From sequence record OL964735.1: a stretch of DNA of 64,000 bases; one strand, given 5' to 3'. A model generated the notes under the pieces. The model saw nothing but the letters and a program-made list of their open reading frames with translations, did no database searches and was not told the DNA's origin. Numbering within the stretch: position 1 is the stretch's first letter; every line of letters starts with the position of its first letter. Below, in pieces: positions 3,860 through 63,990 of this stretch. This DNA is from Escherichia phage T4. The position numbers and the translations under genes are program-made.

Positions 3860-4061
3860 TTTTCACCTTTTTATTGATATGTCTTTTTCTATAGACAACT
3901 TTTTCTCGAGTTTCAAATTTATTCTTAGCAGTCATAGCTCGAGCCCATAATACAGCCACTTCTTTTGCCTGTAAGTTTAATTCACGAGCAATTTCAATGA
4001 ATGACTTTCCAGACTCATGAAGAGTAAACACCACAACCTCAGTTCTCATAATCAATCTCAT
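3846..4061 (-). CDS. 24.3: Hypothetical protein with HTH-like segment (24.3 position)
   Basis: 71-aa ORF; start overlaps upstream gene; possible helix-turn-helix GKSFIEIARELNLQAKEV. Confidence 0.5.
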   Translation of the reverse strand: MRLIMRTEVVVFTLHESGKSFIEIARELNLQAKEVAVLWARAMTAKNKFETREKVVYRKRHINKKVKNGTV

Positions 4062-17002: not shown

Positions 17003-17024
17003 TTTGTGTTCCTCATGTTATGTT

Positions 17025-17065
17025 AGTAAGACTACTATAACACAACACGAGGGACTTGTAAACTA
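17025..17065 (-). promoter_or_regulatory. T4 early-type promoter (GTTTAC -35, TATAGT -10) upstream of alt.-3
   Basis: Minus strand GTTTAC, 17-nt spacer, TATAGT; same about 50-bp cassette recurs upstream of alc at 30155-30208. Confidence 0.5.
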
Positions 17066-17238
17066 CATTTTGAACTTTTTAGTACGCGTAATAGGCATGC
17101 GTCGATTTTATACTGTTTCATTGTTTGAAGAGCAGTATCAAAAACAGCATTAATGACACCAATTGGATTTCCACCCAAGTTTTTAAGCTTAACTAATGAT
17201 AGTTTCTCATTAACACCTATCATTACGATATGCATCAT
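17035..17238 (-). CDS. alt.-2: Alt paralog fragment 2 (homolog of Alt residues about 63-130)
   Basis: 67-aa ORF; MMHIV...QYKIDAC...L motifs align with the Alt N-terminal region in this window. Confidence 0.6.
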   Translation of the reverse strand: MMHIVMIGVNEKLSLVKLKNLGGNPIGVINAVFDTALQTMKQYKIDACLLRVLKSSKCSLQVPRVVL

Positions 17239-23822: not shown

Positions 23823-23890
23823 TTTTATTCTCCGAGATGTTTAATTGCGGTACAGGTATATAATATCATATCCTGTACCAAAGTAAACAA

Positions 23891-24223: not shown

Positions 24224-24333
24224 TTTATTCTCCTTTGTTTGTGTAAGATAATACTATCACAAAGGAACTATACTGTAAACAACTTTGTGCAATCTTTGGA
24301 AAATAAAAAAGGACTCCCGAAGGAGTCCTCAAC

Positions 24334-27268: not shown

Positions 27269-27478
27269 CTATAATATCACAACTCTACCGTAAAGTAAAC
27301 CATTAAATCGCTTTGAATTCCGCAGTTTGAGATTCAAATCTGGAAGCAAAGTGTTCAATACATGAGTCACTTGAGCATGGATTCGAAGCTCAGCTGCGTT
27401 ATCAAGTTTTTCAAACATATTATTAGCGATAATTTGGCTAAACACTACTTCTACGATTTTAGAGTAAGTCGGAAACAT
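27269..27478 (-). CDS. cd.3: Hypothetical protein (cd.3 position)
   Basis: 69-aa ORF. Confidence 0.5.
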   Translation of the reverse strand: MFPTYSKIVEVVFSQIIANNMFEKLDNAAELRIHAQVTHVLNTLLPDLNLKLRNSKRFNGLLYGRVVIL

Positions 27479-30144: not shown

Positions 30145-30164
30145 CATAAAGTCCTCATGTTATG

Positions 30165-30208
30165 TCAGTAAGACTACTATAACACAACACGAGGGACTTG
30201 TAAACAAC
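30165..30208 (-). promoter_or_regulatory. T4 early-type promoter upstream of alc
   Basis: GTTTAC -35 and TATAGT -10 on the minus strand; nearly identical to the cassette at 17025-17065. Confidence 0.5.
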
Positions 30209-39964: not shown

Positions 39965-40012
39965 AGTTTTGATAGGGTAATAGTATCACACTACTACCCT
40001 GATGTAAACTAC
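39965..40012 (-). promoter_or_regulatory. T4 early-type promoter
   Basis: GTTTAC -35 and TATTAC/TATCAC-type -10 within the gatagggtaatagtatcac cassette; similar cassette at 60535-60580. Confidence 0.45.
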
Positions 40013-40410
40013 TTTTTGAAAGTTTTTCGCAAAAGTTCAATGATTTCATCTACATTGTTTTCGTCAACAATGCAGTGAATTTTTGTTACGCCAGAAACCT
40101 TGTCTTTGACTTCATCTTCTTCAGAAGTCGGTTCTTTATATTCGCGGAAACAATAAAACTCTTCTTCACTAAGTTCAAAATAATCATCACCCATACCATC
40201 ATCATTATAGATTTCACCATTAGCACAAATGATTTCGGTTACATAATCAAAGCCATCTAAACTTGATATTGATTTAACTTCAAACCAACCGCCATTTTCT
40301 TGAATGATGCCGACCATACTAGCATTTGATGAACTAATATCAATGAAAGATTTAATACGATGTGGATTTAACTCGTATTTTTTGCCGATTTCCATTTTGA
40401 TTTTCCTCAT
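40009..40410 (-). CDS. frd.2: Hypothetical protein (frd.2 position)
   Basis: 133-aa ORF. Confidence 0.5.
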   Translation of the reverse strand: MRKIKMEIGKKYELNPHRIKSFIDISSSNASMVGIIQENGGWFEVKSISSLDGFDYVTEIICANGEIYNDDGMGDDYFELSEEEFYCFREYKEPTSEEDEVKDKVSGVTKIHCIVDENNVDEIIELLRKTFKK

Positions 40411-40440: not shown

Positions 40441-40668
40441 TTATTGTTCAATCAGTCCCATGTAAAATTCTGCGTCTTCAGAATCCATGCCATCACAATA
40501 TTCATTAGCCATAAAGCGGGTGAGGTCTTCAAGAGGACCTTCAATAACGATTTGAATACTCCAAAACTTAGAATCTTGCACGCTTGTGATACTAAGTTCA
40601 GGATAACGATTACGAATAATCTCTTCAATATATTCAAAATCAACGATGTCAATATCAACTTTAGCCAT
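40441..40668 (-). CDS. frd.3: Hypothetical acidic protein (frd.3 position)
   Basis: 75-aa ORF. Confidence 0.5.
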
Positions 40669-40702
40669 ATTATTTTCCTCTTTAATTATTAGCAGTATTG
40701 CC

Positions 40703-40745
40703 GATAGTTGTATAGTACCATAAAGCTTTATGCTTGTAAACCGTT
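40703..40745 (-). promoter_or_regulatory. T4 early-type promoter upstream of frd.3
   Basis: Minus strand: A/T-rich UP region, GTTTAC, spacer, TACTATAC -10; cassette about 75 bp, nearly identical to 57403-57470. Confidence 0.5.
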
Positions 40746-40772
40746 TTGTGAAAAAATTTTTAAAATAAAAAA

Positions 40773-40791
40773 GGGGACCTCTAGGGTCCCC
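40773..40791 (-). terminator. Rho-independent terminator after gene 32
   Basis: ggggacc-tcta-gggtcccc hairpin followed by a U-run on the minus strand. Confidence 0.6.
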
Positions 40792-40813
40792 AATTAATTA
40801 GTAATATAATCTA

Positions 40814-41719
40814 TTAAAGGTCATTCAAAAGGTCATCCAGGTCCGTGTCATCAGCACTAGATGAACTACCAGAGCTTGAGCTCATAAAATCATCTTCAGT
40901 TTTTGTATTGAAGTCATCAACATTGAATGCATCCAAATCATCAGCAACTTTATCAGCTTTCTTAGCAGCAGTTGCAGCAGCACCGCCCATCACAGCAGTT
41001 CCCATAACTTGACCGAATTTAGTATTAAGTTCTTCAAACGATTTGAATTTATCTTTAGAAGTCATTTCAGAAAGGTCAACCATTTGTTCGAACAGTTCTT
41101 TCTGGAAAGATTCATCGTCAATGTTTGGAATCGCAGATTGATTCAGGAATTTAGATTCATCGTAGTTACTAAATCCAGAAACTTGTTTAACTTTCAGTAC
41201 AAAGTTAGCACCTTCCCACGGACAAGTTACATCAACTGGAGTTTCACCCATTTCAACATCAACCGCAATCATTGCATTGATTTTATCCCAGATTTTCTTA
41301 CCGAAACGGTATTTAAATACTTTACCTTCGTTTTCTGGAGCAGCTGGGTCTTTTACTACAAGAATGTTAGCCCAGTAAGAAGTTTTACGTTTAACAAGAC
41401 TGTACTCTTTATTGTCAGTGTTGTATAGATCATTTTTACTGATGTATTGACATACTGGGCAAGAATCGTAATCACCATGGGTAGATGAACATGTTTCAAT
41501 ATACCATTTACCATTTTTCTTGAAACCGTGATTTACAAGAATTGCGAATGGTGCTTGTTCATCATTTTTAGACGGAAGAAAACGAATTACTGCTTGACCG
41601 TTACCCGCATTATCGAGTTTCAGTTTCCACTCGCCTTTATCTTCAGAAGAAAAACCTTTATTGCCATTCAGTTTAGCCATTTGTGCAGCGAGTTCAGCAG
41701 TAGATTTACGTTTAAACAT
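40814..41719 (-). CDS. 32: Single-stranded DNA-binding protein gp32
   Basis: 301-aa ORF (T4 gp32 is 301 aa); zinc site C-x-H...CPVC; acidic Ser/Asp-rich C-terminus. Confidence 0.95.
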
Positions 41720-44674: not shown

Positions 44675-47600
44675 ATGGCCGAGATTAAAAGAAAGTTCAG
44701 AGCAGAAGATGGTCTGGACGCAGGTGGTGATAAAATAATCAACGTAGCTTTAGCTGATCGTACCGTAGGAACTGACGGTGTTAACGTTGATTACTTAATT
44801 CAAGAAAACACAGTTCAACAGTATGATCCAACTCGTGGATATTTAAAAGATTTTGTAATCATTTATGATAACCGCTTTTGGGCTGCTATAAATGATATTC
44901 CAAAACCAGCAGGAGCTTTTAATAGCGGACGCTGGAGAGCATTACGTACCGATGCTAACTGGATTACGGTTTCATCTGGTTCATATCAATTAAAATCTGG
45001 TGAAGCAATTTCGGTTAACACCGCAGCTGGAAATGACATCACGTTTACTTTACCATCTTCTCCAATTGATGGTGATACTATCGTTCTCCAAGATATTGGA
45101 GGAAAACCTGGAGTTAACCAAGTTTTAATTGTAGCTCCAGTACAAAGTATTGTAAACTTTAGAGGTGAACAGGTACGTTCAGTACTAATGACTCATCCAA
45201 AGTCACAGCTAGTTTTAATTTTTAGTAATCGTCTGTGGCAAATGTATGTTGCTGATTATAGTAGAGAAGCTATAGTTGTAACACCAGCGAATACTTATCA
45301 AGCGCAATCCAACGATTTTATCGTACGTAGATTTACTTCTGCTGCACCAATTAATGTCAAACTTCCAAGATTTGCTAATCATGGCGATATTATTAATTTC
45401 GTCGATTTAGATAAACTAAATCCGCTTTATCATACAATTGTTACTACATACGATGAAACGACTTCAGTACAAGAAGTTGGAACTCATTCCATTGAAGGCC
45501 GTACATCGATTGACGGTTTCTTGATGTTTGATGATAATGAGAAATTATGGAGACTGTTTGACGGGGATAGTAAAGCGCGTTTACGTATCATAACGACTAA
45601 TTCAAACATTCGTCCAAATGAAGAAGTTATGGTATTTGGTGCGAATAACGGAACAACTCAAACAATTGAGCTTAAGCTTCCAACTAATATTTCTGTTGGT
45701 GATACTGTTAAAATTTCCATGAATTACATGAGAAAAGGACAAACAGTTAAAATCAAAGCTGCTGATGAAGATAAAATTGCTTCTTCAGTTCAATTGCTGC
45801 AATTCCCAAAACGCTCAGAATATCCACCTGAAGCTGAATGGGTTACAGTTCAAGAATTAGTTTTTAACGGTGAAACTAATTATGTTCCAGTTTTGGAGCT
45901 TGCTTACATAGAAGATTCTGATGGAAAATATTGGGTTGTACAGCAAAACGTTCCAACTGTAGAAAGAGTAGATTCTTTAAATGATTCTACTAGAGCAAGA
46001 TTAGGCGTAATTGCTTTAGCTACACAAGCTCAAGCTAATGTCGATTTAGAAAATTCTCCACAAAAAGAATTAGCAATTACTCCAGAAACGTTAGCTAATC
46101 GTACTGCTACAGAAACTCGCAGAGGTATTGCAAGAATAGCAACTACTGCTCAAGTGAATCAGAACACCACATTCTCTTTTGCTGATGATATTATCATCAC
46201 TCCTAAAAAGCTGAATGAAAGAACTGCTACAGAAACTCGTAGAGGTGTCGCAGAAATTGCTACGCAGCAAGAAACTAATGCAGGAACCGATGATACTACA
46301 ATCATCACTCCTAAAAAGCTTCAAGCTCGTCAAGGTTCTGAATCATTATCTGGTATTGTAACCTTTGTATCTACTGCAGGTGCTACTCCAGCTTCTAGCC
46401 GTGAATTAAATGGTACGAATGTTTATAATAAAAACACTGATAATTTAGTTGTTTCACCTAAAGCTTTGGATCAGTATAAAGCTACTCCAACACAGCAAGG
46501 TGCAGTAATTTTAGCAGTTGAAAGTGAAGTAATTGCTGGACAAAGTCAGCAAGGATGGGCAAATGCTGTTGTAACGCCAGAAACGTTACATAAAAAGACA
46601 TCAACTGATGGAAGAATTGGTTTAATTGAAATTGCTACGCAAAGTGAAGTTAATACAGGAACTGATTATACTCGTGCAGTCACTCCTAAAACTTTAAATG
46701 ACCGTAGAGCAACTGAAAGTTTAAGTGGTATAGCTGAAATTGCTACACAAGTTGAATTCGACGCAGGCGTCGACGATACTCGTATCTCTACACCATTAAA
46801 AATTAAAACCAGATTTAATAGTACTGATCGTACTTCTGTTGTTGCTCTATCTGGATTAGTTGAATCAGGAACTCTCTGGGACCATTATACACTTAATATT
46901 CTTGAAGCAAATGAGACACAACGTGGTACACTTCGTGTAGCTACGCAGGTCGAAGCTGCTGCGGGAACATTAGATAATGTTTTAATAACTCCTAAAAAGC
47001 TTTTAGGTACTAAATCTACTGAAGCGCAAGAGGGTGTTATTAAAGTTGCAACTCAGTCTGAAACTGTGACTGGAACGTCAGCAAATACTGCTGTATCTCC
47101 AAAAAATTTAAAATGGATTGCGCAGAGTGAACCTACTTGGGCAGCTACTACTGCAATAAGAGGTTTTGTTAAAACTTCATCTGGTTCAATTACATTCGTT
47201 GGTAATGATACAGTCGGTTCTACCCAAGATTTAGAACTGTATGAGAAAAATAGCTATGCGGTATCACCATATGAATTAAACCGTGTATTAGCAAATTATT
47301 TGCCACTAAAAGCAAAAGCTGCTGATACAAATTTATTGGATGGTCTAGATTCATCTCAGTTCATTCGTAGGGATATTGCACAGACGGTTAATGGTTCACT
47401 AACCTTAACCCAACAAACGAATCTGAGTGCCCCTCTTGTATCATCTAGTACTGGTGAATTTGGTGGTTCATTGGCCGCTAATAGAACATTTACCATCCGT
47501 AATACAGGAGCCCCGACTAGTATCGTTTTCGAAAAAGGTCCTGCATCCGGGGCAAATCCTGCACAGTCAATGAGTATTCGTGTATGGGGTAACCAATTTG

Positions 47601-48552: not shown

Positions 48553-49671
48553 ATGGAAAAATTTATGGCAGAGTTTGGACAAGGATATGTCCAAACGCCA
48601 TTTTTATCGGAAAGTAATTCAGTAAGATATAAAATAAGTATAGCGGGTTCTTGCCCGCTTTCTACAGCAGGACCATCATATGTTAAATTTCAGGATAATC
48701 CTGTAGGAAGTCAAACATTTAGCGCAGGCCTTCATTTAAGAGTTTTTGACCCTTCCACCGGAGCATTAGTTGATAGTAAGTCATATGCTTTTTCGACTTC
48801 AAATGATACTACATCAGCTGCTTTTGTTAGTTTCATGAATTCTTTGACGAATAATCGAATTGTTGCTATATTAACTAGTGGAAAGGTTAATTTTCCTCCT
48901 GAAGTAGTATCTTGGTTAAGAACCGCCGGAACGTCTGCCTTTCCATCTGATTCTATATTGTCAAGATTTGACGTATCATATGCTGCTTTTTATACTTCTT
49001 CTAAAAGAGCTATCGCATTAGAGCATGTTAAACTGAGTAATAGAAAAAGCACAGATGATTATCAAACTATTTTAGATGTTGTATTTGACAGTTTAGAAGA
49101 TGTAGGAGCTACCGGGTTTCCAAGAAGAACGTATGAAAGTGTTGAGCAATTCATGTCGGCAGTTGGTGGAACTAATAACGAAATTGCGAGATTGCCAACT
49201 TCAGCTGCTATAAGTAAATTATCTGATTATAATTTAATTCCTGGAGATGTTCTTTATCTTAAAGCTCAGTTATATGCTGATGCTGATTTACTTGCTCTTG
49301 GAACTACAAATATATCTATCCGTTTTTATAATGCATCTAACGGATATATTTCTTCAACACAAGCTGAATTTACTGGGCAAGCTGGGTCATGGGAATTAAA
49401 GGAAGATTATGTAGTTGTTCCAGAAAACGCAGTAGGATTTACGATATACGCACAGAGAACTGCACAAGCTGGCCAAGGTGGCATGAGAAATTTAAGCTTT
49501 TCTGAAGTATCAAGAAATGGCGGCATTTCGAAACCTGCTGAATTTGGCGTCAATGGTATTCGTGTTAATTATATCTGCGAATCCGCTTCACCTCCGGATA
49601 TAATGGTACTTCCTACGCAAGCATCGTCTAAAACTGGTAAAGTGTTTGGGCAAGAATTTAGAGAAGTTTAA
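48553..49671 (+). CDS. 35: Long tail fibre hinge connector gp35
   Basis: 372-aa ORF (T4 gp35 is 372 aa). Confidence 0.9.
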   Translation: MEKFMAEFGQGYVQTPFLSESNSVRYKISIAGSCPLSTAGPSYVKFQDNPVGSQTFSAGLHLRVFDPSTGALVDSKSYAFSTSNDTTSAAFVSFMNSLTNNRIVAILTSGKVNFPPEVVSWLRTAGTSAFPSDSILSRFDVSYAAFYTSSKRAIALEHVKLSNRKSTDDYQTILDVVFDSLEDVGATGFPRRTYESVEQFMSAVGGTNNEIARLPTSAAISKLSDYNLIPGDVLYLKAQLYADADLLALGTTNISIRFYNASNGYISSTQAEFTGQAGSWELKEDYVVVPENAVGFTIYAQRTAQAGQGGMRNLSFSEVSRNGGISKPAEFGVNGIRVNYICESASPPDIMVLPTQASSKTGKVFGQEFREV

Positions 49672-49676
49672 ATTGA

Positions 49677-49700
49677 GGGAGCCTTCGGGTTCCCTTTTTC
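49677..49700 (+). terminator. Hairpin terminator after gene 35
   Basis: gggagcc-ttcg-ggttccc followed by TTTTTC. Confidence 0.55.
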
Positions 49701-49702
49701 TT

Positions 49703-55759: not shown

Positions 55760-55938
55760 ATTGAATCACCTTCAGTTGACGTTTTAACTCTTTTATCATC
55801 TCTTCGTTCATCGCAATATAAAGATCGCGTAGAGCAGGTTTTAGCATTCCATTTACTGGAGAACTAAATGGACATACATAATCTTTTCCTACTGGATTTG
55901 ATTCATAATTCCATCAATTTGAAACTTTTTAATATTCA

Positions 55939-56733: not shown

Positions 56734-57369
56734 TCACAGTTCAGATGCTACAGTGATTACAGCTTCAATGTTTTCTGCCGAGCGTTTAATGTCAAGATAC
56801 ACATTACCGTTTTTAGCGATTTTACATGACATTCCGATGTCAGTAAATTTCTGAATATGATGTTCCATCATTTTGTATCCAAAAATTCGCATATTTCCAT
56901 TGTTATTAATTTCAAAATTACGAATTCCGTTAGTGCGTTTTTCTAAAATAGCAAGATAATTACTACGATAAATTTCAACCTTTTTAAGAACAAATCCATT
57001 TTTATCTAAAAGTTTTAACATGAGGTCTTTATCTTCTTCCATATCGGAAGTAATCTCGCGAGCTTTACGAGTTGCTCGTTTTTTCAGCAGTTCCGGAGCA
57101 TTTTCCTGTGCATATAAAGTTGCTGCATTTGAAATAATATCCTGAGCTTCACCAGTAATGATTAATCCATCACCAGATTTCTCCACCAGGCCTTTTTTAA
57201 TCAATACCCCAATATTACTATTAACTACTGCGTTACCTAAATCTGGATGCACCTCACGAACTTCTGCAGCTGTAATGAAATCTTTCTTAGCAATGGTAAT
57301 TAAAATCGTAGCAGTTTTTTCATTCAGAACATCGTTAGAAGCTTTGATGATGTAAGTTACTTTAGACAT
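56734..57369 (-). CDS. motA: Middle-transcription activator MotA
   Basis: 211-aa ORF (T4 MotA is 211 aa); preceded by an early promoter. Confidence 0.9.
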   Translation of the reverse strand: MSKVTYIIKASNDVLNEKTATILITIAKKDFITAAEVREVHPDLGNAVVNSNIGVLIKKGLVEKSGDGLIITGEAQDIISNAATLYAQENAPELLKKRATRKAREITSDMEEDKDLMLKLLDKNGFVLKKVEIYRSNYLAILEKRTNGIRNFEINNNGNMRIFGYKMMEHHIQKFTDIGMSCKIAKNGNVYLDIKRSAENIEAVITVASEL

Positions 57370-57402
57370 TTTCTAATCTCCGTAATTCTGTATCAGTAGT
57401 TG

Positions 57403-57445
57403 ATAGTTGTATAGTACCACAGTATGCTTTGGTTGTAAACCGTTT
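57403..57445 (-). promoter_or_regulatory. Early promoter for motA
   Basis: Minus strand: UP-like A/T tract, GTTTAC, spacer, TACTATAC; cassette nearly identical to 40703-40770. Confidence 0.55.
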
Positions 57446-57471
57446 TGTGAAAAAATTTTTAAAATAAAAAA

Positions 57472-57491
57472 GGGAGAGCCTCGGCTCTCCC
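57472..57491 (-). terminator. Rho-independent terminator upstream of the motA promoter
   Basis: gggagagcc-tc-ggctctccc hairpin followed by a U-run on the minus strand. Confidence 0.6.
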
Positions 57492-57496
57492 TAAAA

Positions 57497-57646
57497 TTAC
57501 TGCATGACTGTGATAACTGTCATGATAACACGTTGAATTCCGAACGCAAGAAGACCTCCTGCTACGGCTGGAACAACGCCTAAACCCGCCAGTAAAATGC
57601 TACCAGATACTAATGCAGCGCTTGTAATACCAATGAATGGACTCAT
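57497..57646 (-). CDS. Small hydrophobic membrane peptide (motA.1 position)
   Basis: 49-codon ORF read by hand; ATG overlaps the gene 52 stop (ATGA); entirely hydrophobic (MSPFIGITSAALVSGSILLAGLGVVPAVAGGLLAFGIQRV...). Confidence 0.45.
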   Translation of the reverse strand: MSPFIGITSAALVSGSILLAGLGVVPAVAGGLLAFGIQRVIMTVITVMQ

Positions 57647-60417: not shown

Positions 60418-60652
60418 AGTAAACGTTTAATACATCAATCATTAAAACGATTGGGAATATACTCAAAACTATTAGTATTATAACTACATTCCATATAGCT
60501 TTAATAATCTTTTTCATTTTCTGTTCCTCCATAGTTGATAGGGTAATAGTACCACGGAAGAACAGTCTTGTAAACAACTTTTTTAAAAATATTCGTAATA
60601 AATGTGAATACCAACTACTACCGCTGAAACCTGTGCAACCCACCACGCACAA
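60404..60652 (-). CDS. Small membrane protein (ndd.x)
   Basis: 82-aa ORF with a C-terminal TM helix (VVIILIVLSIFPIVLMI). Confidence 0.4.
   Translation of the reverse strand: MCVVGCTGFSGSSWYSHLLRIFLKKLFTRLFFRGTITLSTMEEQKMKKIIKAIWNVVIILIVLSIFPIVLMIDVLNVYFGFM
60535..60580 (-). promoter_or_regulatory. T4 early-type promoter
   Basis: gatagggtaatagtaccac -10 region and GTTTAC -35 on the minus strand. Confidence 0.45.
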
Positions 60653-60807
60653 GCAATAAGTACAGAATTCAAAATTTTCATAATAACCTCATTACAAAAG
60701 TAAATGTTAAACAAATTACTGGAATACTAATTAACCAAACAAAACACCACCATAATGAACTCATAGTTCAATCTCAGCGATTTTCATTTTATTCTCCAAA
60801 TCCGTAT

Positions 60808-60855
60808 CAGTTGATAGTTGTATAGTACCACGGTCCTTGTGGTATGTAAACTGTT
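60808..60855 (-). promoter_or_regulatory. T4 early-type promoter downstream of denB
   Basis: GTTTAC and TACTATAC elements on the minus strand (gatagttgtatagtaccac cassette). Confidence 0.45.
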
Positions 60856-61733: not shown

Positions 61734-63990
61734 ATTTAAATTGTTCAGTAACGTCTTCAACTACTTCATATTGGCAGGTACGCATTTTAGCATCGTTGTA
61801 ATCAATCGGAATTGATACTACATCGCGAGGATGAACTTTAACTTTTACAACTCGGCTGGTTGAACTACCAAAGTGACGAATATAAGATTTAGAACACACA
61901 TGCAAACCACGAGAACAAGTTTGTGTATCATCGTCATTCACACGAGTACGTGGCATTTTAACTACTTTACCCGGACTGTTATCAAAGGTGTTTGAGTGAC
62001 AGTCAAAGTAATTGCTGCGAACTACTTTCCAAGCATAGAAGTAACCATCTTCTGTAATTTCAATATCGTTTGCTACCAAGAAATCAAAGAGTCGAGATAC
62101 CGCTTTTTGGCTTGGGTTTTCCAACAGATTTTCCAAGAACGGAAAATAAAATTCAAAGTTTTCGCCTTTTTCCATCGAGTCAAGAATACGATCAACCAAA
62201 CCAGACCGCAATTCAATATTTTGATAGAACAAGCTTCCACCTTCAATTCGAACATCGCCGGAAATATATTTTTCAACAGCACGACGAACATTAATTTTTT
62301 GTGCCGCTTCTTCCAACTTATCCGCTACAAGCAGATTAAGAATTTCCTGGAAGTTTGAATGAGTATTAGGAGTTGCGTTATAAGTTACGCCATCAACAGT
62401 AATTGAAATGAATTTTTTAGATGCATTCCAAATAATGTCAGATTTAGCAACTGGAGCAATAACTGCATCGCTATTAACTTTAACTGTAATATCACCGCTA
62501 ATAGTAACTTTAGGACGAGGAGCTTTACTTTTAACTACCTTTGGAATATAACTTTTTACTAAAGCTTCAATTTCTGACAAATAATGAATGTTAACTTCAT
62601 CACTTTCAAACATCGCCATAATATCAGGAAGCAAATCAATCTGCGATTCTACTTCTGGATTAATAAACAGAAGACGTTCGTTATGATGAATATTCAAAGT
62701 GTTATTAAATTCACTATCATCTAACGCACGTGCTAATCCACGGACAATATTAACACGATTTTTAATATTATCAATAACGATATTAATTTTTGTTGTATTA
62801 ATACCAAACAGACGATAACTTGATGCAACGGCTGAAGTTTCATGACTTTGCTTAATGCGCTTCAGTCGAGGGTCAAGATTTACTTCATACACAACTCCCG
62901 CGTTGCATAACTTACTGTCAGGTTCAAACATGCTCTGCATCTTTTTATATGACAGATTTTTAGTCGTGAATTTGACTGAATTACTAATCATATAATCTCG
63001 AGCAGAATACCCCATCTTCATCAATTCACGATATGTGTGACGAGGAGATGTAGATTCTTTAAATCGTTTTACATCTTCATTAAATGCTTTCTCACTGAGT
63101 TCTTTAACTCGTTCAATAATATTTTTACGAGTGCGATCATCCAGTGAAAGAGCCTCGCGAGATGGAGCAATATCAAGTGAACCCATTGGAAACTTAATGT
63201 AATTCACTTCATTGCGAATGCTTAGCCAGTTACGGTCTCTAATAACACCATCGATAGGATAAACAATACCACCGTAGATAGCATATAATCCACCACGATC
63301 AGGCCAGTATCTTTCTGGATTTACACCGTAATAGTCATCAAAATCCGGAAAATAATCAATTTCGCGGTCAAGACCATTAATGATAGCCAAATCTTTGAAC
63401 GGTCGCATGATATAAGAAACTTCATAAGCAAAGTTTCTAAAGTCTTTTTCTTCAACTGGAACTACGATTTCAATACCAGTTTTATCATCTGGACCCATTT
63501 CTTTTACGAATGTAGGTTTAATCTGTGGACCATCACCATCCATGTAAGCTACATAACCACGAATTTCACCTTTATGATACGAAGTAATACTAAACGTATC
63601 AGTATAACTAAACGGAGATTTAGAACCTAAACCAAATCCGCCAATAAAGTCATTAGATTCAGCTTTAGATGAACTGAAGTATGAATTATACAACCCAGGA
63701 GAATTATCATCACCTTGAATATCAAAATCACTCATACCCGGACCAAAATCTCGACAAACAAATCGTGGGTCTAAACGTCCAGGAACTTGTATGATAAATT
63801 TTTCAGGATTTCCATTAAGTGCATGAGCATCAATCATGTTAGTAATCAATTCACGGACTACTGCGCGAATCTTGTTTGTATACAAATCAGATGACAGAAT
63901 TTTAAATACTTTAGGAGATGCTGTGATGCTAAATGCTTTTGATTTAGAACCATTACCAAGAATTGTTTCTTTTTCAGTGGTGATAATCAT
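61732..63990 (-). CDS. rIIA: rII protein: rIIA-like N-terminal GHKL ATPase region in a single 752-aa ORF; probable rIIA-rIIB in-frame fusion
   Basis: 752-aa ORF with GAGGAAATT RBS; GHKL motifs N-box [10 protein letters not shown]1 DFGPG, G2 GGFGLGSKS; lies where T4 has rIIB then rIIA upstream of denB; no separate rIIB-sized ORF. Confidence 0.6.

Follow-up and report, generated by a model that had tools for sequence, protein, structure and literature searches.

Composite elements that join a terminator to an early promoter have been described as promoter-early stem-loops (PeSLs), in which a stem-loop terminator is followed by an A/T-rich tract, an early promoter and an SD/ATG (Arbiol et al. 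2010, PMC2839356; Comeau et al. 2014, PMC4122927). According to these accounts PeSLs occur at scattered sites, with conservation that extends over about 100 bp, and cluster where small ORFs distinguish close relatives (PMC2839356; PMC4122927). The consensus given for PST/T4 PeSLs is TTTACW-N17-TAYWAT, with the stem-loop just upstream, the SD/ATG at the 3' end and an adjoining indel, and exchange of ndd.4/ndd.5 is used there as an illustration (PMC4122927). For RB49/phi1, experiments are reported that show promoter and terminator activity of PeSLs, recombination between neighbouring PeSLs to yield small circles, and crossover points at varying places inside the cassettes (PMC2839356). The promoter part of these elements can be compared with the T4 early promoters, an 'uber' UP/-35/TGn/-10 class with extra conserved positions (Hinton 2010, PMC2988021). 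These promoters outcompete those of the host and are stimulated when Alt modifies the alpha subunit of the polymerase; MotA is among the early products (PMC2988021).

Here we analyze a pair of similar sequences that lie upstream of frd.3 (copy A) and motA (copy B) in a 64,000-nucleotide stretch of Escherichia phage T4 DNA, hereafter the window. Our reading, to which we assign a probability of roughly 90%, is that each copy is a composite T4 regulatory cassette on the minus strand and belongs to a dispersed family whose members exchange sequence.

Two copies of a mosaic repeat

Both flanks of the repeat are 99.9-100% identical to Escherichia phage T4, and alignment to AF158101 places window position 40300 at T4 146,434 and window position 57000 at T4 163,233. 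The minus strand of the window is the T4 early-transcription strand, on which the gene order is 32, frd.3, frd.2 around copy A and 52, motA.1, motA around copy B; these gene positions bear out an earlier sequence-only reading that had named frd.3 and motA as the downstream genes. The copies are 16.7 kb apart and are separated by genes 32, 59 and 33, the tail-fibre genes 34-38, t and asiA, with the homing-endonuclease gene segG adjoining gene 32.

The same reading had paired 40703-40775 with 57403-57475. The repeat is real, with its second member displaced by one base to 57402-57474, and the gap-free alignment of the two segments is identical at 64 of 73 positions (88%, where a value below 80% over this span had been named as counting against it). 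Identity is distributed in blocks. The -10 and start region at 40703-40720 is identical at 18 of 18 positions, and 40734-40775, which spans the -35, the UP tract, the terminator T-tract and the first stem Gs, is identical to 57433-57474 at 42 of 42, while 40721-40733, within the spacer between -35 and -10, matches at 4 of 13. When the hairpins are added (98 nt), identity is 79%, as the stems, GGGGACCCTAGAGGTCCCC and GGGAGAGCCGAGGCTCTCCC, are unlike in sequence and unequal by 1 base in length. The 42-mer is the longest exact direct repeat of the 64-kb window, compared with 15-19 nt in 20 dinucleotide shuffles, and the frd.3/motA repeat is thus far above chance expectation.

Anatomy of the cassettes

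All features of copy A are on the minus strand. The gene 32 stop codon (40814-40816) lies 22 nt before a terminator stem-loop, GGGGACCCTAGAGGTCCCC (40773-40791), which was found by a terminator scan, folds at -14.3 kcal/mol and is annotated 'terminator' in orthologues. Its T-tract, TTTTTTATTTT (40762-40772; seen in the sequence and in the scan), leads directly into the A/T-rich UP-like tract TTTAAAAATTTTTTCACAAAAC (40743-40764, about -59 to -38), so that the T-run (-67 to -57) and the distal edge of the UP region overlap by about 3 nt. The stretch between the T-tract and GTTTACA reads AAAAATTTTTTCACAAAACG, and the UP region presumably matches the E. coli UP consensus at about 14 of its 17 specified positions. 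The promoter scan places the -35 hexamer TTTACA at 40735-40740 (T4 form GTTTAC, 40741-40736) and the -10 hexamer TACTAT at 40712-40717, separated by the 17-nt spacer AGCATAAAGCTTTATGG (40718-40734), whose 3' end is the TGG of an extended -10. This spacer allele equals that of the nrdC.10 cassette and is unlike the spacer of the motA copy. Directly 3' of TACTAT is ACAACTATC, where spacing predicts a start A at about 40705, and the leader with its Shine-Dalgarno sequence, AAAGAGGAAAA, runs from there to the frd.3 ATG at 40668-40666 (leader and start codon together 40666-40705).

Copy B, likewise on the minus strand, follows the motA.1 stop codon (57497-57499) by 4 nt and begins with the terminator stem-loop AGGGAGAGCCGAGGCTCTCCCT (57471-57492), again found by the scan, with a fold of -19 kcal/mol (z = -4.1) and an orthologue annotated 'terminator'. 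The 42-nt block identical to 40734-40775 occupies 57433-57474 and carries the first stem Gs, the T-tract, the UP tract and GTTTACAA. Within the promoter, the scan places the -35 hexamer TTTACA at 57434-57439 and the -10 hexamer TACTAT at 57411-57416, and the 17-nt spacer between them, ACCAAAGCATACTGTGG (57417-57433), is the motA-type allele and also ends in TGG. The start is predicted at an A at about 57404, from which the leader ACAACTATCAACTACTGATACAGAATTACGGAGATTAGAAA extends to the motA ATG (57369-57367; together 57367-57404).

Promoter and terminator signals

A minus-strand reading in the order hairpin, UP tract, GTTTAC and TACTAT had been proposed from the letters of the window, and it holds in consensus scans, in RNA folds and in the GenBank annotation of related cassettes. 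At both loci the promoter scans return TTTACA-17-TACTAT (40740-40712 and 57439-57411), the spacing of T4 early promoters, with TGG before TACTAT, the A/T-rich TTTTAAAAATTTTTTCACAAAAC 5' of the -35 and, upstream, hairpins of 7 and 9 pairs with the T-run tails TTTTTTATTT and TTTTTATTTT in copies A and B, respectively. Both cassettes lie on the early strand before frd.3 and motA. In GenBank record U76612 the nrdC.10 paralogue, which has the same core, is annotated with a terminator, a -35, a -10 and 'early promoter 54.4'; the frd.3 orthologue of SA21RB is annotated with a rho-independent terminator and a T4-type early promoter, and further records of relatives annotate the cassette hairpins as terminators. 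Taken by themselves the hexamers are weak evidence, as TACTAT agrees with TATAAT at only 4 of 6 positions and the score of 9 out of 12 that the simple scan gives the whole site is equalled by many chance sites in such A/T-rich DNA. What carries the case is therefore the family, together with the strand bias and the published work.

For initiation and termination at the frd.3 and motA sites themselves, as for the mechanism of recombination, we draw on the literature and on inference from the arrangement of the signals. A Rho-independent terminator would end the upstream unit (gene 32, or 52-motA.1), and directly after it would stand a very strong sigma-70 early promoter, with a UP tract that begins in the T-run, a -35 of GTTTACA, a 17-nt spacer ending in TGG and a -10 of TACTAT. 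Host RNA polymerase would use these promoters immediately after infection, and a new immediate-early transcript would begin some 35 nt upstream of the frd.3 or motA start codon. The frd.3 RNA is reported to rank with the most abundant T4 RNAs that carry an NAD cap (+1A), and the 5' ends of T4 NAD-RNAs are described as starting with A and coinciding with dRNA-seq TSSs (bioRxiv 10.1101/2024.04.04.588121); an abundant NAD-capped frd.3 RNA fits the predicted +1 A at 40705. No paper devoted to genome-wide 5'-end mapping of T4 emerged from a literature search.

The hairpin of copy A has a further point of comparison. We take GGGGACCCTAGAGGTCCCC with its T-run to be the Rho-independent terminator of T4 gene 32, a signal that Prentki and Krisch reportedly used in the omega interposon in 1984; a literature search on the gene 32 terminator and the interposon returned no match. 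The likeness lies in the hairpin and T-run placed immediately 3' of the gene 32 stop, and the difference is that the T-run here continues into the UP tract of the next promoter. One A/T stretch may thus serve two signals, the terminator T-run and the UP tract.

A dispersed cassette family in T4

The core motif GTTTAC-N17-19-TAnnnT has 13 sites on the minus strand of the window and none on the plus strand, compared with a mean of 1.2-1.5 per strand and a maximum of 5 in shuffled sequence. In the whole T4 genome it has 43 sites, 40 of them on the minus strand. A tight sub-family of about 8 close copies shares TTTTTTCACAAAAC(N)GTTTACA ... TGGTACTATACAACTATC, and its members lie upstream of imm.1 (27.1 kb in the T4 genome), nrdC.8 (53.9), nrdC.10 (55.4), rI.-1 (58.8), e.8 (70.7), frd.3 (146.9), motA (163.7) and ndd.6 (167.1). 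Among 703 pairs of T4 early-promoter-like sequences, frd.3/motA ranks second in similarity, at 78% over 90 nt against a median of 41%; first is frd.3/nrdC.10, which has a 58-nt exact block that includes the spacer, with nrdC.10 lying outside the window. Nearly all exact repeats of at least 30 nt in T4 are within cassettes of the early-promoter family.

The shorter variants that the sequence-only reading had listed at about 60.8, 60.55 and 39.98 kb proved to be genuine family members, upstream of ndd.6, ndd.4 and frd.1. All are on the minus strand, as is a further member upstream of 30.8. The ndd.6 member (60822-60851) has the UP/-35 and -10/leader sequences of copies A and B together with a spacer of its own, the ndd.4 member (60546-60575) has a TACTATTACCCTATCAA-type -10/leader, the frd.1 member (39980-40009) has a -10 enclosed by the inverted repeat AGGGTA...TACCCT, and the 30.8 member (24251-24303) has a hairpin and T-tract (GGACTCCTTCGGGAGTCC TTTTTTATTTT) ahead of it. 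The published ndd.4/ndd.5 exchange maps to the cassette copies at 60.5-60.8 kb.

Several other features of the family were observed. The leader of the ndd.6 cassette (window about 60805-60815) reads CAACTGATACGG as against CAACTACTGATACGG in AF158101, the window having the 3-nt-shorter form found at nrdC.10 and in relatives. The pair 17010-17066 and 30152-30208, upstream of alt.-3 and alc, is 96% identical over 57 nt; spacer, -10 and leader are common to both sites and the UP tract is not, the converse of the frd.3/motA mosaic. At 9 of the 13 core sites of the window an inverted repeat of 5-8 nt encloses the -10, its first arm falling within the spacer and its second directly 3' of the -10. 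These sites include 23860-23888, 24251-24280, 27271-27300 and 39980-40009, and the arms vary in sequence by site, as in GGTACAGG...CCTGTACC and AGGGTA...TACCCT. They match the sub-classes of RB49/phi1 PeSLs in which a stem-loop is described as overlapping the -10; no such repeat is present in the frd.3 and motA copies. One core-motif site, 45128-45157, lies antisense within gene 34, is without UP tract or TGn, and could be either a fortuitous match or a weak promoter in antisense orientation.

The size of the family bears on whether one recent segmental duplication, or a single transposition of, for example, a small mobile element, made both copies. An exact identity of 42 nt between places 16.7 kb apart speaks for such an event, and homing-endonuclease genes are common nearby, segG beside gene 32 being one. 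Against this, the similarity ends at the hairpin and at the leader, the flanking genes are unrelated, and no transposase gene was noted beside the cassettes. T4 also has about 8 close copies, which stand at conserved intergenic positions across many Tequatrovirus genomes, each of which has 4-6 cassette places detectable by BLAST, and a single recent copying leaves unexplained why an essentially unrelated spacer should lie between two identical blocks. We therefore regard a single duplication or transposition as very improbable.

The same numbers speak to pure convergence, in which each promoter would have been driven independently to the optimum of the host polymerase, with neither common descent nor exchange. 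In favor of convergence, the identical blocks are functional elements (UP, -35, TGn/-10 and T-tract) while the spacer and hairpin stems differ, and the T4 early-promoter class has an extended consensus beyond the hexamers (PMC2988021). Most pairs of T4 early promoters are, however, only about 41% identical over the same 90 nt, and selection alone therefore does not force the shared sequence. The spacers of relatives, described below, weigh further against convergence.

Spacer exchange and small-ORF insertion in relatives

At the orthologous frd.3 locus of related phages there is almost no variation in the hairpin, UP tract, -35, -10 and leader. The spacer, by contrast, exists in four alleles, all of which match the spacer of some other locus exactly or almost exactly. 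T4 and SA21RB have the nrdC.10-type allele, T2, RB32, RB27 and YUEEL01 the e.8-type, G50 an ndd.6-like spacer and R5505 the motA-type. The frd.3 cassette of R5505 is identical to the motA cassette of T4 from the T-tract to ACAACTATC, and in OE5505 the cassette after motA.1 has the nrdC.10-type spacer. Hairpins and leaders, too, are newly combined in relatives, and the ends of the exchanged segments vary, comprising the spacer only, the spacer with the leader, or the hairpin with the promoter.

Small ORFs are inserted at the borders of the cassettes. In L031, a metagenomic relative, the motA-locus cassette is separated from motA by a 75-aa ORF, after which comes a second early promoter, and a 22-nt leader segment is repeated on both sides. 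The motA-locus cassette of OE5505 leads into the same inserted ORF. In L039, about 720 nt with three small ORFs are inserted after the nrdC.10 cassette, with early-promoter-like sequences before the third ORF and before nrdC.10. At both places, the motA cassette of L031 and the nrdC.10 cassette of L039, the inserted ORFs are flanked by repeated cassette sequence.

Convergent selection alone cannot account for these mosaics. The 17-nt spacers are not read base by base by the polymerase, yet they are identical between non-orthologous loci, and identical spacers combine differently in different phages, with leaders that are also mosaic. Convergence is for these reasons an improbable account of the repeat, if the least improbable of the three alternatives that we weigh.

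The third is that the cassettes are sites of a dedicated, integron-like site-specific recombination system that moves small ORFs. The small ORFs of L031 and L039 do lie exactly at cassette borders with repeated cassette sequence on both sides, and in the account given in PMC4122927 the PeSL authors leave such a system open. No integrase-like gene is associated with the cassettes, though, and the crossover points reported for RB49/phi1 vary within them (PMC2839356). The differing ends of the exchanged segments fit general homologous recombination, which is very active in T4, and a dedicated system strikes us as the least probable alternative of all. The three together are left with only a small share of the probability, since all of them conflict with the mosaic pattern, with the many conserved family positions or with the variable exchange end-points.

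We thus favor a dispersed family of cassettes that exchange sequence, in which the likeness of the two copies would have two causes: (a) strong selection on the promoter blocks and (b) membership of one dispersed family, numbering about 8 close copies in T4, whose members trade sequence through homologous recombination or gene conversion. For such exchange, the conserved blocks that flank the spacer would provide the homology.

The sequence-only reading had proposed that repeats of this length are substrates for homologous recombination between distant loci, and had suggested a search of related genomes for deletions or inversions bounded by the cassettes. Relatives do show short-patch exchange of spacers and ORF insertions at cassette borders; deletions or inversions between the frd.3 and motA copies were not found, nor was a chimeric junction among 50,697 phage records. 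Specifically, a synthetic chimeric query joining the gene 32 terminator to the motA leader was covered by no record in that collection, and the reverse chimera was covered to at least 80% by only four (92% coverage, 84-88% identity), all at the ordinary motA locus, as confirmed for one of the four, Phaginator. A 16.7-kb deletion between the copies is expected to be lethal through loss of essential genes, and T4 packages its DNA by the headful, so that a 16.7-kb duplication would not fit. Absence of the frd.3/motA crossover junction is therefore to be expected. The comparisons support the recombination idea in kind, with patch conversion and the shuffling of small cassettes as its apparent visible outcomes.

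A narrower proposal, which we put forward tentatively and hold to be somewhat more doubtful than not, is that the 17-nt spacer is a separate swappable module, moved between dispersed cassettes by short-patch gene conversion. The spacer is bordered by blocks of perfect homology of 42 nt and 18-28 nt. With the same reserve, we suggest that its moves might include transfers between frd.3 and motA and between frd.3 and nrdC.10, in either direction, across loci 17-91 kb apart. In principle, spacers could also have passed from phage to phage at one and the same locus, instead of moving among the loci of a single genome; the comparative data show that exchange occurred, not where. If the proposal is right, each locus samples a small set of spacer alleles, which may tune promoter strength or timing. 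The PeSL papers, in their accessible portions, describe exchange of ORFs between cassettes and not of promoter spacers (PMC2839356; PMC4122927), and spacer exchange between the flagged loci in natural isolates is an only mildly new point. Public genomes give clear evidence of it, and the swaps offer a natural allelic series for testing the effect of the spacer on very strong promoters.

Other features of the window

Relative to T4 records, the window is missing exactly 100 bp of cd.3 at 27338/27339 (T4 about 133,371-133,470) and exactly 100 bp of arn.2 at 55892 (T4 about 162,026-162,125). Neither junction has microhomology, and the arn.2 deletion is common to no other phage record in the collection; both deletions look engineered or artificial rather than natural. 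At about 62514-62515 a deletion of about 870 bp fuses rIIB to rIIA, and the same junction is unbroken in two shortened T4 records, OL964745.1 and MZ375356.1, so that the DNA of the window derives from a laboratory deletion variant of T4. A seeming engineered insertion flanked by XhoI sites at 3911-3937 was rejected, as it reflects only a gap in the old reference AF158101: the window has these roughly 28 nt, as do most T4 and T4-like records, and only AF158101 is without them (24.2/24.3 region). Several families of in-frame direct repeats lie inside the tail-fibre gene 34 at 46076-47001. On the plus strand, a hairpin with T-run (AGGGAACCTTCGGGTTCCCTTTTTCT) occurs at 462-493, after gene 23, and at 49670-49701, after gene 35. 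The two are 91% identical and are probably late-gene terminators of one shared type.

Comparison with PeSLs and T4 early promoters

The frd.3/motA repeat is two copies of an already described T4 cassette of terminator and early promoter, the PeSL, and the suggestion that the copies represent a shared regulatory module accords with both the PeSL concept and the published T4 early-promoter class. The discovery value of the pair is accordingly small, since its signals are textbook T4 signals and the role of such cassettes as recombination-prone elements was published in 2010 and 2014. The pair is of use in showing that a terminator-promoter module and its repeats can be recognised from the letters alone.

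Both copies have the PeSL layout of stop codon, hairpin, promoter and ATG (stop 40814-40816 and ATG 40668-40666 in copy A; 57497-57499 and 57369-57367 in copy B), and this composite fills the intergenic space in each case. The PST/T4 consensus TTTACW-N17-TAYWAT is matched, and the dispersed family is conserved over about 100 bp, with about 8 close copies in T4. Indels at the level of whole ORFs adjoin the cassettes, and close relatives differ by the insertions in L031, OE5505 and L039 and by replacement of the frd.3 spacer. The differences are not essential ones. The frd.3 and motA copies border conserved genes (32 and motA) rather than lying deep in a hyperplastic region, and the pair shows spacer patch exchange only and no excision; the PeSL mini-circles were, by the account given for them, demonstrated in RB49/phi1 and not in T4.

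With the T4 early promoters at large, the two cassettes share the GTTTAC -35, the TGn and TA-rich -10, the UP element and the extra conserved positions, as well as their place on the counter-clockwise strand before immediate-early genes, motA being a known early gene. They differ from that class in forming part of a tight sub-family (TTTTTTCACAAAACNGTTTACA ... TGGTACTATACAACTATC), in which the frd.3 and motA copies are 78% identical against a median of 41%.
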